64,000 nt of DNA from an uncultured Gemmatimonadales bacterium (GCA_963850905.1 CAWKMU010000003.1:480001-544000); one strand, 5' to 3'. Positions 53,778-64,000 are shown, counted from the first letter of the stretch. Translations and numbers: made by a program. The notes: a model not told the origin generated them from the letters alone.

Positions 53778-53897
53778 GAACAAACCGAGGGTCCGCTCGG
53801 CGCACAGTGACCGGCCCTGGACCGGTAGGGGCGACGCATTGCGTCGCCCGTTGGTGTCGTTGCGGTTGGTTCCCTGACCCCTGACCCCGACCCCTGA
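53778..53897 (+). repeat. Composite element with REP at 53825
   Basis: AACAAACCG...GACCGGCCCTGGACCG-REP-GTT tract-(CCCTGAC)n. Confidence 0.88.
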
Positions 53898-53910: not shown

Positions 53911-55416
53911 TTACCTATACGTTTCGAAAAACCCCGTCCCTTCTCCCGACAACGGCACGCCCCCGATACGCCCCGAGATCCGGGCGCGCCCCTTCATCTG
54001 GACAAAATAGGGGTGCACGAGCCGGCGAGCGGCAGCCGTTGCCCCACGCTCGATGAGCGGCCGGCGGGTATCGGTCGCCACGGCGTCTTCGACTGTGAGG
54101 TCCACACGCAGCGTATCCGCCCCTCGGACATCGGCGAGTCGCGCCGCCGATGGCACGCGCACCCGTCGCCCGTCCACGACGATGGTGCGGTGGTCAGTGT
54201 AGGCAATCGCCGACGGGCGAAAGACTGAGCGAAACCCCAGCGAATCAACCAGGTACACGAAGAGCGGCGAGTTTCCACCGAGGGAATCTGGCGGCTGTAC
54301 GCGGCCAAAGAGCAGCGCGAAGCTGCCGGCGCGCGCGGCCCCCCATTCCCACGTGACACCACGCCAGACGCCCCAATTGTGGTCGTGGTACGCCTGTGCG
54401 GCATCATACCGGGTGCAGCGCGCGCCGGCGCAGATCCGCCCACTGCCATTGGCCTTGAGGGCGGGCACGGTATACCCCGAAGCAAAATCCCCAGTCGCGA
54501 TATCCACGCCAGGGAAGTAGGCCCGCGGCGCCGGCGTGATCGTCAGGTCGACATCGATGCTCGCCCCTCCGGCATCCCGAGCGTGCGCCCGCACGGCGTA
54601 CCGGCCGTCGCCCAGCAAACGCACCGACGAGGGACCGATCTGGAGATCCGGAGAGGTCGTCGAGAAATGAATGCCCGCGGGTGGTGCCGTCGCCACGTAC
54701 CGGTGCTCTCGCGCCGGCGCGTCGGCCGCGGGGGCGGTGTGCGTCGTTACGAGCACCTGCCCGCCCCATTCGCCTCGTCCGACCGCACCGCCAAGAATGA
54801 AAGAGATGAAGACCCACTGCCGGCGGTCAGCGGACACGATGTTGAAGTAGTGCCACTCGCCCCAGCTCTGCGGGTTGGCGATCCCCGGGGGCGGCACGTG
54901 GAAGTGGTCGATGTCCGCCTCCAGCTCGGCCGGCGTTGGATGGGCCCACCGGCGGTCGATGTCGTCATCTGTCCACTGGCCCGCTGCGAGTGCTGGCGCC
55001 GCACCCACGGCGGCGGTGGCCGACGGCAAGTCGCCCAGCGCTCGGACTGGGCGTTCCTCGCCGTCGGCGGTCGTGAGATACAACAGCTTCTCGTCGCTTT
55101 GCGGCGCCACCGCGCGCACGAACGGTGCGAGCCGCGGGGACGCGAGCAACTGGAGAGCAACGAACCGTGCGTTGGGAATCGAGAAGAACATGCCGCCGAG
55201 GCCACCCGTCTTCATCACTTCCACGTCGATCCCATCGGGCAGCACCGTGACGTCGCCGCCGCCAACCAACCGCTCATCCTGCGCCTGAGTCACCATTGCT
55301 CCGCCGATGGCGAGCAGTACGATCATGACGGCCACGCCCAATCCGAAGCCGATGAAGAGCAGCGCCGACCGCCAGGGCTTGTAGAGAAAGTTGCGAACGG
55401 CCAGAAGGGTCAACAT
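53911..55416 (-). CDS. N-terminal half of a MacB/LolE-type permease fused to a lipocalin-like (AttH/CrtC-like) domain
   Basis: LAVRNF..PWRSALLFIGFGLGVAV (typical permease start), partial periplasmic domain, then WGEWHYFN...YHDHNWG..WEWG; no C-terminal TM helices. Confidence 0.7.
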   Translation of the reverse strand: MLTLLAVRNFLYKPWRSALLFIGFGLGVAVMIVLLAIGGAMVTQAQDERLVGGGDVTVLPDGIDVEVMKTGGLGGMFFSIPNARFVALQLLASPRLAPFVRAVAPQSDEKLLYLTTADGEERPVRALGDLPSATAAVGAAPALAAGQWTDDDIDRRWAHPTPAELEADIDHFHVPPPGIANPQSWGEWHYFNIVSADRRQWVFISFILGGAVGRGEWGGQVLVTTHTAPAADAPAREHRYVATAPPAGIHFSTTSPDLQIGPSSVRLLGDGRYAVRAHARDAGGASIDVDLTITPAPRAYFPGVDIATGDFASGYTVPALKANGSGRICAGARCTRYDAAQAYHDHNWGVWRGVTWEWGAARAGSFALLFGRVQPPDSLGGNSPLFVYLVDSLGFRSVFRPSAIAYTDHRTIVVDGRRVRVPSAARLADVRGADTLRVDLTVEDAVATDTRRPLIERGATAAARRLVHPYFVQMKGRARISGRIGGVPLSGEGTGFFETYR

Positions 55417-56171
55417 GCGGAACGTCGCACGCCGGTGCCGGATTCGCCGACGATGTCTCCATCGCGCATGTGAACGACTCGTTGGGCCGCTGCGGCCAGC
55501 TCGTCGTCATGGGTCACGACGACGATCGTCGTCCCATTGGCGTGGAGCTGCCGAAAGAGCTCGATGATCTGCCTCCCGGTACCGGCGTCCAGCTCGCCGG
55601 TCGGCTCGTCGGCGAGGAGAATCGCGGGACGATTGGCCAACGCGCGCGCAATGGCGACGCGCTGCTGCTCGCCGCCGGAGAGTTGCGCGGGCCGATGCCG
55701 AGCGCGATCGGAGAGACCGACGTACGCCAGCAGCTCCTGCGCGCGTGCGCTGCGTTCTGCGGATTTGACCCCGGCCTCGGCTAGCGGCAACTCGATGTTC
55801 TCGCGAGCGGTCAACGTTGCGAGCAAGTAGAACCGCTGAAAGACGAAACCGATGTTGTGGAGGCGAAAAAGCGTCGCTTCGCGGTCCGGCAGCGCGCCGA
55901 CGTCGCGCCCGCGAAAGAGCACGTCGCCCGACGTTGGCCGGTCGATGACGCCCAGAAGATTGAGGAGCGTCGACTTCCCGCAGCCGGACGGCCCGACGAT
56001 CGCCACGTGCTCGTTCGCGGCGATCTCGAGCGACAGGCCGCGCACCGCGCGGACCACCTCGTCTCCCATCCGGTATTCGCGCCGCAGGTTGCGCACCTTG
56101 ACGATCGCACCGTCGGATCGATCGTCCATGCGCCACGCCGCGCGTGGGATCGAGCGCCCGAATACCGTCAT
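55410..56171 (-). CDS. ABC transporter ATP-binding protein (LolD/MacB-like)
   Basis: [37 protein letters not shown]. Confidence 0.95.
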
Positions 56172-57358
56172 ACGATCGCCTCGCGGCGGAGTGTGGCCGC
56201 GATCGGGAGGGCCGATGCACGCCACGCCGGATACGCCCCCGCGAGCACGCCAGCCGTCACGAGCAGCGCCAGCGTGCGCCAGGCATCCACTGGCTGGAAA
56301 AGAAAGAAGTGGAACGCCGCTGGCAGCCCCGGGAAATCGGAGAGGATGGCATTGAGGTACCTCGCGGTCACGAGACCCAGGCCGAGTCCGAGGGCTGTGC
56401 CGGACAGTGCCAGCACGAGCGCCTCGAGCACGATCTGGATCACGACGCGCACCCGGCGCACGCCGATCGCGCGCATGACGGCGATCTCCCCGAGTCGTTC
56501 GTTCACGGAGACCGTCACGAGGGTGGTGACCAGGAGGAAGCCGACCGTGAAGCTCACCGCCCCCAGGATGAGCGCGAGCTGCCCGAAGTATCCGAGTCGC
56601 TCGTCGACCTGTCGCAACGCCGCGGGCGTCGACAACGTGGACACGCTCGGGAAGCGGCGATCCACCCACGCGGCCACGGAATCCGCATTCACGGAGTCGC
56701 GCACCTTGGCGAGAAACAGCGAGGCGCGATCGGCCCGCTGTGCGCCACCCATGGCCTGCAGTGTCGCGATCGGAATGGCCATCGCCGGTTCGTCGGCCGC
56801 CGTGTAGAAGAATCGACCGACGCCGGCGATCACGACCCGTCGCCGTCCGGCATAGGTCCGCAACTGCGAGTCGAGACCCGTGGCGACGTCCAGCGTGTCG
56901 CCCAGTCGTGCGTGCGCGCGCGAGAGGAACGCCGTGTTGACCACCACGCGATCGGTCCCGGCGAGCGAGTTCCCCTGCTCCAGCTGATAATCCGCCTGCG
57001 TCGCGGGATCGAGTCCCACCGCAAAGGTCGTCAGGCCGGCTCGGCCGCCGAGCAGCAGATGGATCTGCGCACCGAGCACCGGCGTCGCACTGGTGATGTC
57101 GGGGTTCGCCCGCAACGCCGCGAGGATGTCACTCGCGTGCCCGATGGTGGCCTCGGTATCCATCGGCAGCGTCCCCTTGGGAGCGATCCGCAGATCGAAC
57201 CCCTGGACCAACAGGAACCGGCGGAACGACTCCCGCATCCCGGTCGACAGCATGACCATGTCGAGCAGCAGCGCCGCCGCCACTGCCACGCCGGCGACCG
57301 CCAGCGCCGTCCGAGCCGTGTGACGGCGCAGGGAGGCGATCGCCAGCGACGCAATCAT
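56168..57358 (-). CDS. MacB/LolE-type ABC permease (full length)
   Basis: TM1, periplasmic domain, FtsX domain SVNERLGEIAVMRAIG, YPAWRAS. Confidence 0.92.
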   Translation of the reverse strand: MIASLAIASLRRHTARTALAVAGVAVAAALLLDMVMLSTGMRESFRRFLLVQGFDLRIAPKGTLPMDTEATIGHASDILAALRANPDITSATPVLGAQIHLLLGGRAGLTTFAVGLDPATQADYQLEQGNSLAGTDRVVVNTAFLSRAHARLGDTLDVATGLDSQLRTYAGRRRVVIAGVGRFFYTAADEPAMAIPIATLQAMGGAQRADRASLFLAKVRDSVNADSVAAWVDRRFPSVSTLSTPAALRQVDERLGYFGQLALILGAVSFTVGFLLVTTLVTVSVNERLGEIAVMRAIGVRRVRVVIQIVLEALVLALSGTALGLGLGLVTARYLNAILSDFPGLPAAFHFFLFQPVDAWRTLALLVTAGVLAGAYPAWRASALPIAATLRREAIV

Positions 57359-58173
57359 CGGCCAAAGAGCGTGAGTGGCGGCATGCGGGCGAGCCGCGTG
57401 CTCGCGACGAGTCCGGCGACGAGCCCCAGGACCACAGCGAGTGAAACCGCCAGGCCGACGATGTCAGGCGTCACCAGCGCAAACGCCAGTTGCGTCCGAT
57501 ACACGCCACGGTAGTGCCAGTTGATGAAGAGCGATGTGGCCCACCCGACTACCACGCCGACGGCGCTCCCCACCAGCGCGATACACGCTGCCTCCATGAC
57601 CACGGAGGTCACGACAGACACGCGCGAAATCCCGATCAGACGAAGCGCCGCGACATCATGCCGACGCTCATCGACTCTCAGGATGAGCAGGCACACGAGA
57701 AAGATCGCGCTCGCCACGACCGTGATGACCGCGATCGCCTTGTGAAACCGGCTGACGACCTGGAACGTCTTCGACGTCCCCACCGCCACGTCGCGAGACC
57801 GGTAGGCGTGAAACCCAAAGGCCTCGCCATTGATTGCCGCCAGCGCCCGATCCGTTGCGGCGCCACCGACGGTTCGGATCGCGAAGCGGTCGACCTCGTC
57901 GGCAGCGTTCGTCAGTCGTTGGAGCTCCGTCAGATGGACTCGGACACGATAGTCGTCGCGCGCTACGTCGGACGGGTCGGTGCCCGGTTGCACGATCGCG
58001 CGGATGACGACCGTATCGCCTCGCCCCGCCGCCGCGTCGCCTGGCTGGCCTGCGATGACCACCCGATCACCCACTCGGAGGTGCGCATCCGCCGCCAGGC
58101 GCGAATCGATCGCAATCGTGCGCGGCGGTCCGCCTGCCTGCACGAGCCACACGAGTGCCAACGCCATCAACAT
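57355..58173 (-). CDS. C-terminal half of a MacB/LolE-type permease with a short signal-like N-terminus
   Basis: 272 aa; hydrophobic leader, LRVGDRV half-domain, FtsX VDERRHDVAALRLIG. Confidence 0.85.
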   Translation of the reverse strand: MLMALALVWLVQAGGPPRTIAIDSRLAADAHLRVGDRVVIAGQPGDAAAGRGDTVVIRAIVQPGTDPSDVARDDYRVRVHLTELQRLTNAADEVDRFAIRTVGGAATDRALAAINGEAFGFHAYRSRDVAVGTSKTFQVVSRFHKAIAVITVVASAIFLVCLLILRVDERRHDVAALRLIGISRVSVVTSVVMEAACIALVGSAVGVVVGWATSLFINWHYRGVYRTQLAFALVTPDIVGLAVSLAVVLGLVAGLVASTRLARMPPLTLFGR

Positions 58174-58233: not shown

Positions 58234-58630
58234 CTACTCTCTCGGGCGCTTTAGCGCCCGCGGGACTGCGCGCGACAATGCGGCGAAGGTGCGCGTGCCG
58301 CCGCGCACCACGAGATAGCCGACCAGCAGCTCGACGCCCCCCGTGATGAGGGCGGAAATCCACACCTTGCCGACCGCCAGCGTCAGCGCAGCCGCGATGC
58401 CGATGGTCAGCGCCGACAGTGCAACGGCACCCGCACCGAACGCCACACCCAACAACGCGGCACCTCGGCTGGTGACGTGCAGCTTGTCCGCCATTCTCGA
58501 GCTTGGCGAGCCGGATCTCGTTCCCGGCCAGCCGTTTCGAGTCATCGCTTAGCCGGCGCACCAGATCGACCAGGGTCGCCGGTGTGCCCGCCGCCTGCTG
58601 AATGCGTAGGTCGCTGCTTGCCACGATCAT
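58234..58630 (-). pseudogene. Phage-holin-superfamily-III/YqjE-like membrane protein, frameshift near 58495
   Basis: LVDLVRRLSDD...EIRLAKLE continues in another frame as MADKL...GAALLG plus two TM helices. Confidence 0.7.
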
Positions 58631-59106
58631 CCCGCGTCGACGCTGGATGGCTTTGGCTGGCAAACATCGTTCCCAGCGGAAGGGCGATTGGCACGCACCA
58701 GCAGGACGGGCACCAGCGACCGGTGACGCACTTCGTTCGCGACGCTTCCCCGCCAGAGATCTGCCAGGAACCGATGCCCGTGGGTCGACATCGCGATGAG
58801 TGAGCAATGCTCGCGCTCGGCGGCCGCAGCGATCTCAGCGGCCGGATCGCCCGTAGCCAAAACGGCCTCCGCCGAAAAGCCTTCACTGGCGAGCTGCGTC
58901 ACGAGCTGATCGAGATACGCGCGATCGTCGCGCATCTCCTGAGACTCGCGCAGCACCAGTTGCTCGATGTTCCGCGCCACCCATCCGTCCGCAACGTGGA
59001 TGAGTACGAGCGCCGAACTGCACAGGCGTGCCAGGCCACGCACGTGGTCGATGATCGACGCGTCCGCCGGCGAGTGCTCGAGTGCCACGAGGATGCGCTT
59101 GTACAT
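58627..59106 (-). CDS. Universal stress protein
   Basis: MYKRILVAL, LIHV, GDPAAEI, LIAMSTHGH, GSVA, PVLLV. Confidence 0.93.
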   Translation of the reverse strand: MYKRILVALEHSPADASIIDHVRGLARLCSSALVLIHVADGWVARNIEQLVLRESQEMRDDRAYLDQLVTQLASEGFSAEAVLATGDPAAEIAAAAEREHCSLIAMSTHGHRFLADLWRGSVANEVRHRSLVPVLLVRANRPSAGNDVCQPKPSSVDAG

Positions 59107-59123: not shown

Positions 59124-59330
59124 CAGGGACCAGGAGTCAGGGGTCAGGATTCAGGGATCAAGGATCAGGATCAGGGAACAAATCGTAACGCCGACCGCGC
59201 GCAGCGTGGCTGGCCTTGGACCGGTAGGGGCGACGCAGTGCGTCGCCCGTCGTTGTCGCGGCGGGTGGTTGCCGTTCCCGCACCCCTCGCCGACGCATTA
59301 CGTCGCCCGTTGTTGCCGCGGCGGTTGGCC
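59124..59330 (+). repeat. Composite element with REP at 59224 and a second degenerate hairpin
   Basis: (AGGGTC/AGGATC)n-GGAACAAATCG...GGCCTTGGACCG-REP; CGACGCATTACGTCGCCC at about 59291. Confidence 0.85.
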
Positions 59331-60516: not shown

Positions 60517-62940
60517 GTGCTCACACTCAAAGCGGCAGCGGACGTGCTGGCCGCAAAGGGATCCGACGCGCTGGTCGCGATCGCCGCGATGTGCGGCTAC
60601 GAGGGTCCGGCCCTGCCGATGGCGCCGCTCGATCGCGCGGCCCTCGGACTCGCGCCCCCTGACGATCCCTGCGCCATCGCAGTGCACGTCGCTCGCGGAC
60701 CGGACGCCCTGCGGGCATTGCTCATCGACGTCGCCCCGGACGGACCGCCGCGAGTGCTGCACGAGATGGTCTCCCGCGTCGCGGCGCGCCTGACGCGTCG
60801 TGCCCCACACCTCGCATGGCTGTGCATCGCGAGAGCGGGCGGGCGCGCGGAGGGCCTCGGCGTGCACCCTCACCCCGCCAAGTCGAACGGATCCCACGCC
60901 GCGCGACAACTCGTCCTCGCGACCTGGTCGAGCGAGCGCCAGCCGCCCCGCATTGCCGCACTGGTCGTCGATCCGGACGCGGTCGTCGACAGCGATGCCG
61001 AGACCCTCGCCGCGTTAGCGGCAGCGGTCAGTGCCGACACGGCTGGAACGCACGCGCGATGGCTCGATCTCCTGGGACGCGAGTCGCTCACGCGGCGGTT
61101 TTACTTCGCGCTGAACCGCGCGGTTGACGCGCTCGCATCTGCGTCGACCGTCCCGAGCGGCGTGCGGAGCCCTCCGCCGCATATACGGCGCGAGCTCGCA
61201 CTGCTCTGCACGTCTCGCTTGCTGTTCCTCGCCTTTCTCGAGGCCAAGGGGTGGCTCGATCGAGATCGCGCGTTTCTCGCGCGGATCTTCGCCGACTGCA
61301 TGGCGGGCGGCGGCGACTTTCATGCGCGCGTGCTCCGTCCGCTGTTCTTTGGCACGCTCAACACGCCGTTCTCCAAGCGCTCCCAGGCGGCCGTCCGGTT
61401 CGGGCACATTCCCTTTCTCAACGGGGGCCTGTTCTCGCCGACTGCCCTCGAGCGACGACTGCGCGGCGTCGCGTTCTCCGATGCGGCGCTGGGCGCGTTC
61501 GTGGGAGACGTGCTGGGCCACTATCGCTTCACGGCCCGAGAAGACCGCAGCACGTGGTCGGAAGCAGCCATCGACCCCGAGATGTTGGGACGCTCGTTCG
61601 AGGCGCTGATGGCGCCCTCCGTGCGTCACGCCACGGGTGCCTATTATACGCCACAGGCGCTCGTGTCCCGGGTCACCGAGCACGCACTCGTCCACGCGCT
61701 CGCGTCAGCGGCCGCACCGCCGACCGCGGTCGCCGCGCTGCTGCGCGGCGAATCCGCGGGCGAGGCCGCCCACGGGGCCGTTCACCAGCGACTCTCCGGC
61801 TTGCGCGTGCTCGATCCGGCATGTGGGTCCGGCGCCTTCCTCGTGCACATGCTCGACCTGCTCGCCACGCTCGCTGCCCGCGTCGGCACCGATCTGCCCG
61901 TCAGCCAGCGGCGCCGGCACGTGCTGACGCGCTCGATCTTTGGCGTGGACATCAATCCGACCGCGGTCTGGCTCTGTGAGCTGCGGCTCTGGCTCGCTGT
62001 CGTGATCGACAGTCCCGACGACGACCCTCGCGCAATGTTGCCGCTGCCCAACCTCGACCGCAATGTTCGCGTGGGCGACGCACTCGCGGGCGGCGCTTTC
62101 GGCGGCGGGCCGCATCACGGGCCCACCGGCACGGCGGACCAGCGGTCGGCAGTCGTGATCGGACGGCTCCGTGAGCGCTACGCGCGCTCGACGGGCGCGC
62201 GGAAACGATCCATGCTGCGCACGCTGGAACGCGTCGAGCGGAGTCGCGCGCTCGAAGGACTCCGCCGCGAGTTGGCCTCGGTCATGCGCGCGCGCATCGA
62301 CGCAGTGACGCTCGCTCGCGGTCGCGACCTGTTCGGCGCGGCGGCGCCCGGCGGCGCGGGTGAACGGGCCCGTCGCTCCGAACTGCGCAAGCGTGCACGC
62401 GCGTTGCGGTCACAGATCGAGGCGCTCCGCGGTGGCGCGGCGCTCCCATTCGCCTTTGCAACGCACTTCGGCGACGTCGACGACGCTGGCGGCTTCGATC
62501 TCGTGCTCGGGAATCCGCCGTGGGTGCGCCCACACGCTGTGCCCATCGTCGATCGCGAGCGCCTGCGACGGGACTTTGTGGTGTGTCGTCACGGTGCGTG
62601 GCTGCGCGGCGCGGCGGCCGGACGATCCGGACCAGGCTTCGGAACCCAGGTCGACATGGCAGCGATCTTCGTCGAGCGCGCGCTCACCGTCGCGAGGCCG
62701 CGTGGGATCGTCGCGCTCCTGCTGCCCGCGAAGCTGTGGAGATGTCTTGCGGGCGGCGGCGTGCGGTCGCTGATACTGGATCGTGCCTCGCTCCTCCGGA
62801 TCGAGGACTGGTCTGGCGCCCGTCGAGCGTTCGATGCGGCGGTGTACCCCTCGCTGCTCATCCTGCGCCGCGTTGCCCAGCCCGGCTCCAACACGACACC
62901 ACCCGGCCGCGAGGCCGTGGCATCGATCGACGCGCCGTGA
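60517..62940 (+). CDS. N6-adenine DNA methyltransferase (Eco57I/type IIG-like MTase core)
   Basis: IPFLNGGLF, GAYYTP, VLDPACGSGAFL, FDLVLGNPPW. Confidence 0.88.
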   Translation: MLTLKAAADVLAAKGSDALVAIAAMCGYEGPALPMAPLDRAALGLAPPDDPCAIAVHVARGPDALRALLIDVAPDGPPRVLHEMVSRVAARLTRRAPHLAWLCIARAGGRAEGLGVHPHPAKSNGSHAARQLVLATWSSERQPPRIAALVVDPDAVVDSDAETLAALAAAVSADTAGTHARWLDLLGRESLTRRFYFALNRAVDALASASTVPSGVRSPPPHIRRELALLCTSRLLFLAFLEAKGWLDRDRAFLARIFADCMAGGGDFHARVLRPLFFGTLNTPFSKRSQAAVRFGHIPFLNGGLFSPTALERRLRGVAFSDAALGAFVGDVLGHYRFTAREDRSTWSEAAIDPEMLGRSFEALMAPSVRHATGAYYTPQALVSRVTEHALVHALASAAAPPTAVAALLRGESAGEAAHGAVHQRLSGLRVLDPACGSGAFLVHMLDLLATLAARVGTDLPVSQRRRHVLTRSIFGVDINPTAVWLCELRLWLAVVIDSPDDDPRAMLPLPNLDRNVRVGDALAGGAFGGGPHHGPTGTADQRSAVVIGRLRERYARSTGARKRSMLRTLERVERSRALEGLRRELASVMRARIDAVTLARGRDLFGAAAPGGAGERARRSELRKRARALRSQIEALRGGAALPFAFATHFGDVDDAGGFDLVLGNPPWVRPHAVPIVDRERLRRDFVVCRHGAWLRGAAAGRSGPGFGTQVDMAAIFVERALTVARPRGIVALLLPAKLWRCLAGGGVRSLILDRASLLRIEDWSGARRAFDAAVYPSLLILRRVAQPGSNTTPPGREAVASIDAP

Positions 62941-64000
62941 GCGGCGCACCGCCTAGCAGTCCGGAAGACGTCGAGGTCGCCCTGCACACTCGCGTCGGAG
63001 TGCATCGCTGGGCGACGACGGTGAGGATGCTGTGTTTCGACGCCAGTCCGGGCAGTCCGTGGTTGCTCGTGCCACCTGCAGTCCGCGGCGCCTTCGATGC
63101 CCTCGCCCACGCGGGCATCCCGCTCGCGGACACGGCCTTTGGCTCGCCAATGCTGGGAGTCAAATGCGGCTGCAACGACGCCTTTGTCGTAAGTCTCGGC
63201 GCACGCGGCGACGATAGCCGCGATGACGATGACACGGTCGTCGCAATCCGCACGTCGCGTGGCCACGCCAGGCGTACGCCGCACTCCGGCCGCGTCGAGC
63301 GGTGTCTCCTCCGACCGGTGGTCCGTGGGGAAACTCTTGGTCGATGGATGCGGTGCGACCCGCCGGATGGCCGCGGCCGCCCGACGGGCGCACGAACAGC
63401 CATTGAACCGGCACGGGCCGACGCCGTCCGCACCACGGTCCTGGATGGGCGGGCAGGGGCGACGCAATGCGGCGCCCGTCAGCGACGAGCGTGTCGCGAG
63501 CCGGAATGGATCATCTGGACGCACGAGGCCAGCGGCGTCGAGCGCGCGCCGCCTCTCGCGGCCCTGCCGCCGCACGCAGCGAGCTGGCTGGGTCGCTGGC
63601 GGCACCAGCTTGCTGCCCGGAGCGACACGCGCGGCCAGCTTCCCTGGTGGGCCCTGTTCCGCACCGAGAGCGCATCGGCAACGCACCCGCGCGTCGTCTG
63701 GCCAGATCTCGGACGGACGCCACGAGCGACGCTCATCCCCGCCGGCGACGCGACCGTCGCACTCAATAGCTGCTACGTCGCGCGCGCTGCCGACCTCGCG
63801 GATGCGCACGCGCTGACCGCGCTCCTGAACAGTGCGGTCGTCGCGGCGTGGCTCAACATCCTCGCCGAACCGGCCCGTGGGGGATACCGGCGCTACATGG
63901 GGTGGACGGTGGGCCTCCTGCCGCTGCCGCAGCCGTGGGAGGAGACGCGATCCGTGATGGCGCCGCTCGCGGCGGCCGCGCTCGACGGGGCGCCGCCCTC
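62937..64000 (+). CDS. TaqI-like C-terminal target-recognition region of the methyltransferase, partial (separate gene or frameshifted continuation)
   Basis: Manually translated open frame from GTG 62937: GVKCGCNDAF, LLRPVVRG, WWALFR, RVVWPD, LNSCY, ALLNS, ARGGYRRY, LLPLP. Confidence 0.75.
   Translation, partial: MSGAPPSSPEDVEVALHTRVGVHRWATTVRMLCFDASPGSPWLLVPPAVRGAFDALAHAGIPLADTAFGSPMLGVKCGCNDAFVVSLGARGDDSRDDDDTVVAIRTSRGHARRTPHSGRVERCLLRPVVRGETLGRWMRCDPPDGRGRPTGARTAIEPARADAVRTTVLDGRAGATQCGARQRRACREPEWIIWTHEASGVERAPPLAALPPHAASWLGRWRHQLAARSDTRGQLPWWALFRTESASATHPRVVWPDLGRTPRATLIPAGDATVALNSCYVARAADLADAHALTALLNSAVVAAWLNILAEPARGGYRRYMGWTVGLLPLPQPWEETRSVMAPLAAAALDGAPP
63453..63477 (+). repeat. Degenerate REP hairpin inside a CDS
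   Basis: GCAGGGGCGACGCAATGCGGCGCCC preceded by GGTCCTGGA. Confidence 0.7.

Follow-up and report, generated by a model that had tools for sequence, protein, structure and literature searches.

A 64,000-nucleotide stretch of DNA from an uncultured Gemmatimonadales bacterium (GCA_963850905.1, CAWKMU010000003.1:480001-544000), hereafter the window, carries a four-gene operon for an ATP-binding cassette (ABC) system of Type VII in which one permease unit is encoded as two complementary halves, the N-terminal one being fused, at the break inside the periplasmic head, to a domain of the AttH/CrtC fold. The original prediction, made from the sequence of the window, had placed four tightly coupled genes at 53911..58173, and open reading frames (ORFs) are found at these coordinates on the minus strand, with a gene-like GC content by codon position in all four and with the stop and start codons of successive genes overlapping as ATGA, ATGA and ATGTTGA. 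In order of transcription, they encode the C-terminal half of the split permease (C-half, P0004), a full permease of the MacB/LolC type (P0003), a MacB/LolD-type ATPase (P0002) and the fusion of the N-terminal permease half (N-half) to the AttH-fold domain (P0001; Table 1). Database relatives carry Gemmatimonadota labels, and a promoter scan of the operon returned no sigma-70-like site.

The two halves tile the full permease encoded between them. Using profiles built from 110 triple-bearing loci and 17 distant fusion proteins, profile-profile alignment (hhalign) matched residues 1-134 of P0001 to residues 1-121 of P0003 (probability 94%, E-value 1e-7) and residues 18-265 of P0004 to residues 136-385 of P0003 (probability 99.6%, E-value 1e-24). 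At a relaxed threshold the G-x-W motif of the N-half (AAGQW) fell on EQGN of P0003, bordering the start of the C-half, which reproduces a boundary equivalence originally read by eye. The N-half thus covers the full permease to about residue 121-135 and the C-half takes over from residue 136, with neither an overlap nor a large gap, so that the predicted complementarity of two halves lying in reversed order with two genes between them is borne out by the alignments and, across loci, by the gene order. Among 22 distant members of the fusion family, 13 matched Pfam MacB_PCD (best E-value 5.5e-8), and the most distant, P0269, has an N-terminus like that of an ordinary permease. The C-half has a Pfam FtsX match at residues 146-266 and no MacB_PCD match.

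In MacB, the Sabre subdomain of the periplasmic head spans residues 347-465 and the Porter subdomain is formed by two motifs, one on either side of Sabre (PMC5985334). The folded C-half aligns over residues 15-272 to residues 390/394-642 of A. actinomycetemcomitans MacB, 138-398 of LolC and 143-413 of LolE; with Z scores of 6-10 and root-mean-square deviations (rmsd) of 5-9, these superpositions were used for their ranges alone, the starts lying at MacB 390-394, LolC 138-142 and LolE 143-145. Since the C-half begins at MacB 390-394, the break lies inside Sabre and, as the Porter motifs flank this subdomain, neither chain contains a whole Porter or a whole Sabre. The N-half has a single hydrophobic helix, at residues 19-37, and the second protomer reaches four helices when both chains are counted together. 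The full permease is itself of the four-helix type, with the whole large periplasmic domain separating the first and second transmembrane helices (TM1 and TM2), as expected of a Type VII permease; Pfam places MacB_PCD at residues 17-233 and FtsX at 264-385, and its family profile matches solved MacB over residues 3-391 (E-value 6e-17). A conserved E-R-R...A-x-L-R-x-x-G segment, aligned to MacB, forms the TM2-TM3 coupling helix in both the C-half and the full permease. The Walker A, signature, Walker B and His-switch motifs of P0002, as read in its sequence, are intact, as expected of a MacB/LolD-type ATPase, and its top NCBIfam matches are MacB and LolD, both below the equivalog cut-offs; its true start may be Met15.

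The C-half lacks TM1 and begins with a short leader that, by general signal-peptide rules, is very likely to be a cleaved Sec signal peptide that takes over the export role of TM1. In relatives the leader varies in sequence and length, but an eight-residue hydrophobic stretch is present in 180 of 186, a Gln shortly past this stretch in 168 of 186, an x-x-[AGS]-Q site in 111 of 186 and a lipobox in one of 186; the leader DNA encodes a hydrophobic stretch in 95% of cases in frame, against 5-6% in the other two frames. The N-half has 24 near-invariant positions within residues 1-154, the majority beyond TM1, and a mean divergence of 0.44, compared with 0.50 in the corresponding segment of the full permease and 0.52 in the AttH domain. 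The N-half is thus at least as conserved as that segment, which would not be expected of a decayed anchor.

The arrangement is conserved far beyond the source genome. All four genes occur in one order and on one strand (C-half, full permease, ATPase, fusion) at 202 of 259 loci, and no other order was seen; at the remaining 57 the sequence upstream of the fusion gene is at most 3.3 kb, too short to show the order. These loci come from genome and metagenome collections in which some genomes appear in more than one set, and the loci are not independent; the 187 complete sets amount to about 170 distinct ones at 95% identity. An additional 0.5-2 kb separates genes in some loci (for example L013, L124, L164 and L196), and the system is both fused and split in every complete locus. 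Roseisolibacter agri carries a homologue (P0103). In a set of 301 genomes from the phylum, a strong fusion match (E-value below 1e-90) was obtained in 108 and a C-half match also in 108; both were present in 107 (one of which, G157, is unpublished), and 192 had neither strong match. The halves therefore occur together in 107 of the 109 genomes with either, as the original prediction would have it, and the two exceptions (G170 and G146) are both cut by contig ends; the related genomes are not independent, so that this is evidence of co-occurrence and does not test co-evolution. A further 11 genomes gave fusion matches that were only weak or partial, namely G146, G055 (a stand-alone AttH relative), G239 (a broken fragment) and eight with matches to the TM1 region. 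Beyond the phylum, the label Armatimonadota is attached to two fusion proteins, and the metagenome loci closest to one of these (L131 and L132; 54-59% identity) have the same four-gene order. Present in about a third of the sampled Gemmatimonadota genomes (108/301) and among Armatimonadota-labelled proteins, the split system is old and maintained.

The fused domain was assigned to the AttH/CrtC fold on structural grounds. AlphaFold2 predicted a confident all-β domain from about residue 160 of P0001, for which the top Foldseek match was the AttH protein NE1406 (PDB 2ICH; E-value 1.2e-14). VIA-align returned Z scores of 22-25 over 276-299 residues, with an rmsd of 3.5-3.8, for six structures (CghA, 2ICH, Fsa2, the 7DMO pericyclase, 25-phosphosteroid lyase and kievitone hydratase), five of which are enzymes, the next match having a Z score of 8.4. 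The Atlas neighbours of the fused domain are CrtC, Svf1 and Diels-Alderase clusters (0.94-0.95). A profile of six canonical AttH proteins aligned to residues 130-407 of P0001 (probability 53%, E-value 1.4e-4), matching the EWWY, YYYS, Asp and GWDW motifs; the alignment extends weakly into residues 130-155, which leaves the N-half/AttH junction uncertain by about 20 residues. The Pfam families CrtC (PF07143) and Lipocalin_9 (PF17186) were not matched by P0001, nor by any of the 22 family members at an E-value of 0.5. When solved structures were searched by sequence, using the profile of the fusion, weak TM1 matches to MacB and one chance match were all that came up. Tocopherol_cycl was matched by seven of the 22 members (best E-value 3.3e-5); the tocopherol cyclase family was found in none of 101 genomes, and the idea was dropped. 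The domain had been described as `lipocalin/AttH-like': the AttH/CrtC fold holds, while a classical single eight-stranded lipocalin (of the PF00061 type) does not, as the domain comprises about 340 residues, is a double barrel over 276-299 residues and has no lipocalin match in Pfam. Its proposed tether to the periplasmic head also stands, refined to a loop inside Sabre.

Sixteen residues of the domain (D170, H173, W185, E187, W188, Y315, Y343, H344, D345, H346, N347, W348, W356, W358, Q473 and E498) are invariant in 188 of 188 sequences. Two cysteines, C329 and C334 (window 54415-54432), are kept in 186 of 188 and are absent from most distant members; they are likely to form a disulfide, in keeping with a periplasmic location. 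Carotenoid hydratase CrtC requires H239, W241, Y266 and D268 (PMC4717167) as well as W110, W283 and W285 (PMC12402844), and the invariant Y343-x-D345, W188, W356 and W358 occur in a similar order to CrtC Y266, D268, W110, W283 and W285, as mapped by motif spacing and the canonical AttH alignment rather than by direct alignment to CrtC. Judged by these residues, the domain is fairly likely to be catalytic; of the two roles first proposed for it, lipid binding and lipid modification, the conserved residues point more to an enzyme than to a passive binder.

Table 1. Features of the split-permease operon (window coordinates; aa, amino acids).
Feature	Position	Strand	Remarks
Permease C-half, P0004, 272 aa	57355..58173	-	First gene of the operon; leader, second half of Sabre, second Porter motif, TM2-TM4 and coupling helix; no TM1
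C-half leader, aa 1-12	58138..58173	-	Ends in Gln; predicted Sec signal peptide
Full MacB/LolC-type permease, P0003, 396 aa	56168..57358	-	Second gene
MacB/LolD-type ABC ATPase, P0002, 253 aa	55410..56171	-	Third gene
Permease N-half and AttH-fold fusion, P0001, 501 aa	53911..55416	-	Fourth gene
Permease N-half, about aa 1-154 of P0001	54955..55416	-	Amphipathic helix, TM1, first Porter motif, first half of Sabre to G-x-W-x-D
AttH/CrtC-fold double β-barrel domain, about aa 155-501 of P0001	53911..54954	-	Fused at the break point; periplasmic by topology
WGEWHYFN motif, W185-N192	54841..54864	-	Equivalent to EWWY of canonical AttH
YHDHNWG motif, Y343-G349	54370..54390	-	Predicted catalytic Asp345; D345 aligns with the conserved Asp of canonical AttH

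A stand-alone, 346-residue relative of the fused AttH domain, with the YHDHNWG motif and with no permease or evident leader, is encoded in one of the genomes with partial matches (L130:1100-2140; G055:C8). About 1.2 kb from it lies a NUDIX gene (Pfam gives NUDIX only) that resembles one for isopentenyl-diphosphate isomerase; this neighbour is a possible isoprenoid hint for the AttH subfamily. Another database protein, P0188, joins an AttH-domain fragment of the fusion family to a second domain, presumably a class A β-lactamase-like one, and may be a read-through artefact.

The proposed mechanism, a tentative one whose complete chain of steps we place just short of an even chance, is that the second protomer forms anew from the two halves, which hand a membrane lipid over to the tethered AttH-fold domain, as proposed for YbbAP-TesA. 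P0001 and P0004 would rebuild one protomer, forming a heterodimer with P0003 that is driven by two copies of P0002, as in a Type VII ABC machine; the use of ATP would present a membrane lipid or another hydrophobic compound to the AttH-fold domain at the break, a predicted hydratase- or lyase-type enzyme. The individual steps differ in strength. Porter takes a motif from either flank of Sabre, so the halves probably fold together, and the full permease with two ATPases is likewise the probable partner of the rebuilt protomer. That mechanotransmission pulls the substrate out of the membrane is, by analogy with YbbAP-TesA, marginally the better supposition: the extraction of hydrophobic compounds for a bound hydrolase has been proposed for that complex (PMC12646458). 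An AttH-fold protein, hydroxy-GDGT (glycerol dialkyl glycerol tetraether) synthase, hydrates archaeal membrane lipids (bioRxiv 10.1101/2025.10.20.683597). The most specific version, in which the enzyme sits inside the cut of a moving Sabre and cytoplasmic ATP hydrolysis, through a three-chain core, supplies or gates a carbocation-type reaction (hydration or elimination) of an extracytoplasmic membrane lipid, is doubtful.

Several observations weigh against this proposal. The permease likeness of the N-half is weak for a single sequence: BLASTP of the P0001 N-half against P0003 gave no match, the Pfam MacB_PCD match at residues 17-154 (E-value 1.8e-4) is below the curated cut-off and covers positions 1-117 of the 207 in the model, and an earlier profile from 63 loci matched the N-half to the full permease at a probability of only 4%. 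Direct-coupling analysis of 188 paired rows (effectively about 147) showed no direct evidence that the halves touch, the overlap of between-half pairs with full-permease control pairs not being significant (p of about 0.2). Couplings within the full permease, used as a control, were plausible, and two of those between the halves (L112-V79 and D129-R78) map onto them, but the top coupling between the halves, A36-L163, joins opposite sides of the membrane. A salt-bridge switch at D129-R78 was dropped, the median p being 0.375 on independent pairs allowing for kinship. On the enzymatic side, the CrtC mapping is indirect, and for CrtC His239 and Trp241 no clear equivalent is seen, the residues at the corresponding distance being S313-G-Y315. 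With regard to the substrate, no lipid-pathway gene was found among the Pfam-named recurrent neighbours, and neither phytoene/squalene synthase (PF00494; 64 of 109 carriers against 169 of 301 genomes overall, with no match at an E-value of 1e-20 in 45 of the 109) nor squalene-hopene cyclase (six of 109 carriers) tracks with the system. Lipid extraction by YbbAP is itself called unconfirmed by its authors (PMC12646458).

The coupling values also suit a reading in which the halves do not rejoin, the N-half being only a membrane anchor and the C-half either a shortened three-helix protomer with an uncleaved leader beside the full permease or left out of a full-permease homodimer. When folded alone with AlphaFold2, moreover, the periplasmic part of the N-half has a low predicted local distance difference test score (pLDDT; below 50 at residues 38-148), and the C-half folds by itself with a mean pLDDT of 70.6. 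We nevertheless consider this arrangement quite unlikely, since the near-invariant positions of the N-half lie mostly past TM1, the N-half ends where the C-half starts, the C-half leader is unconserved and signal-peptide-like, and Porter, which is reported for every Type VII member of which the reviewers knew (PMC5985334), needs a motif from each chain. That the odd layout reflects an assembly or annotation artefact or a decaying pseudogene is extremely improbable. A few database proteins do join neighbouring genes by frameshift (P0225, P0260, P0287 and P0288), but 3,234 full-length homologues were found among 7,993 candidates scored, and no N-half remnant was found in frame upstream of 187 C-halves (best E-value 0.016, to the wrong region). 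The reversed order of the halves, the two genes between them and the four open frames in 202 loci uphold the original contention that a frameshift cannot explain the split, and conservation rules out a pseudogene.

Two further readings accept that the complex assembles or moves, and differ from the proposal in the role given to the AttH domain. This domain could be a non-catalytic binder, acting as a tethered LolA-like receiver or an Svf1-like lipid carrier that keeps or hands on whatever the transporter extracts, in line with its lipocalin-like fold, with the lipid-transport role proposed for NE1406 from genome context (PMC2954199), with the Svf1-type clusters among its nearest Atlas neighbours and with the missing counterparts of CrtC His239 and Trp241. 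We regard a binder as unlikely: the invariant polar set (D170, H173, E187, H344, D345, H346, N347, Q473 and E498; 188 of 188) fits an active site better, most of the top structural matches are enzymes (5/6) and a tethered domain would be unable to shuttle across the periplasm. Alternatively, nothing would be transported, and an FtsEX-like, ATP-driven motion of the head would switch the tethered enzyme, which would find its substrate itself. FtsEX does regulate periplasmic amidases by mechanotransmission (PMC5985334, PMC12646458), and the enzyme domain is incorporated in Sabre, the subdomain that moves; however, both protomers would have a full Sabre and Porter, like LolCDE and YbbP and unlike mycobacterial FtsX, from which most of Sabre is missing (PMC5985334), and the hydrophobic nature of known AttH-fold substrates suits extraction, so that a pure switch has a low probability, below that of a binder.

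Ordinary attEFGH-type operons are the closest known kind: AttEFGH of Agrobacterium, Rv0986-Rv0988 and NE1404-NE1406 comprise the same three ingredients, an ATPase, two permease units and an AttH-fold protein (PMC3982062, PMC2954199). They have a free AttH gene and whole permease units, whereas the split system has a fused AttH domain that does not match PF07143, and a cut within Sabre in one of its permease units. Canonical operons of an ATPase, a double permease and a separate AttH gene (L308-L316) were found in nine of 201 genomes of the phylum, all nine PF07143 loci being laid out in this way, and the split system occurs in none of these nine genomes compared with 70 of 201 overall (Fisher p 0.03, with kin not independent). 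No PF07143 match is present in the source genome itself. On a tree of 37 rows, the ATPases of the canonical and split systems fall into separate groups, although a joint clade was not rejected (approximately unbiased test, p 0.317).

YbbAP-TesA of Escherichia coli (PDB 9GE6-9GE8; PMC12646458) is likewise a Type VII system without an adaptor or outer-membrane duct and with one enzyme on its periplasmic head, while the split system has an AttH-fold domain, a covalent joining and a three-chain membrane part; the available text of PMC12646458 makes no mention of fusion, split, AttH or lipocalin. LolCDE, too, is heterodimeric, pairing two permeases of four helices each, and its ATPase is separate, but LolC and LolE are whole and lipoproteins are passed to soluble LolA, and the NCBIfam scores of the split-system proteins are far below the LolC and LolE cut-offs. 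No MacA adaptor or outer-membrane duct was found among 25 representatives of recurrent neighbours (124 loci; 10 of the 25 without a Pfam match) or the four window neighbours, although unlinked partners are possible; with no linked adaptor or duct gene, the system is more like LolCDE or YbbAP than MacAB-TolC. The AttH-fold enzymes (CrtC carotenoid 1,2-hydratase, kievitone hydratase, 25-phosphosteroid lyase, archaeal hydroxy-GDGT synthase and fungal Diels-Alderases) share with the fused domain the double-barrel fold and a Y-x-D motif with flanking tryptophans, at an identity of 10-18%; none is described as transporter-fused in the papers compared, the split locus has no carotenoid cluster nearby and no carotenoid gene is among the named recurrent neighbours.

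A protomer cut inside the periplasmic head, with a partner fused at the cut, is not among the MacB-family layouts given in the available text of PMC5985334 (homodimer, heterodimer and fused double permease). In line with the suggestion that the architecture may be undescribed, a permease split inside its periplasmic domain and fused to AttH was not found in a literature search that covered few subscription papers. The layout is compatible with an origin in which AttH was inserted into a loop of Sabre and the gene later underwent fission, the C-half gaining a new signal peptide, but the reversal of the gene order calls for one more rearrangement. No intermediate of such a route was found in searches that by their nature give weak evidence: none of 7,992 candidates of 945-2,695 residues is a longer fused form of the fusion family, and the 41 matches among 7,988 candidates for an unsplit form of the C-half family consist of two strong ones that are frameshift read-throughs and otherwise of ordinary double permeases. 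P0225 (720 residues), considered as a longer form of the fusion, is a frameshifted ATPase-fusion read-through.

The neighbourhood of the operon varies between lineages, the recurrent neighbours including a DtxR/MntR regulator (72 of 124 loci), Usp (66) and NRAMP (60), as well as NUDIX and others. DtxR/MntR, Usp and NRAMP genes lie just upstream in many relatives (L072:2694-4061, L198:1522-2907 and L064:2080-3300) and are not present in the distant L131. In the window, a Usp gene (58627-59106) is located upstream of the operon, with a gene for a holin-like membrane protein (58234-58545) between the two. Palindromic repeats resembling repetitive extragenic palindromic (REP) elements, unrelated to the split, flank the region (53800-53874 and 59199-59328), and their 28-base core has 192 matches in the genome, on both strands, at three mismatches or fewer. 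A large ORF at 60517-64000, resembling an Eco57I/MmeI-type methyltransferase, occupies the same place in relatives (L056:1-2523). The source genome has 63 FtsX-domain matches, mostly in double-permease genes of 800-1,000 residues, a large expansion of Type VII permeases.

The function of a Type VII transporter comes from its periplasmic partner. By joining such a partner to the permease, the fusion fixes the stoichiometry, at one AttH domain per complex if the complex assembles, and provides a candidate docking site, so that the role of AttH proteins beside ABC transporters becomes testable. If the most specific version of the proposed mechanism is true, two chains that are exported separately can fold into one Type VII protomer and, taking the fusion as a clue, the free AttH proteins of the widespread attEFGH and Rv0986-0988 operons would be enzymes working on their transporters.

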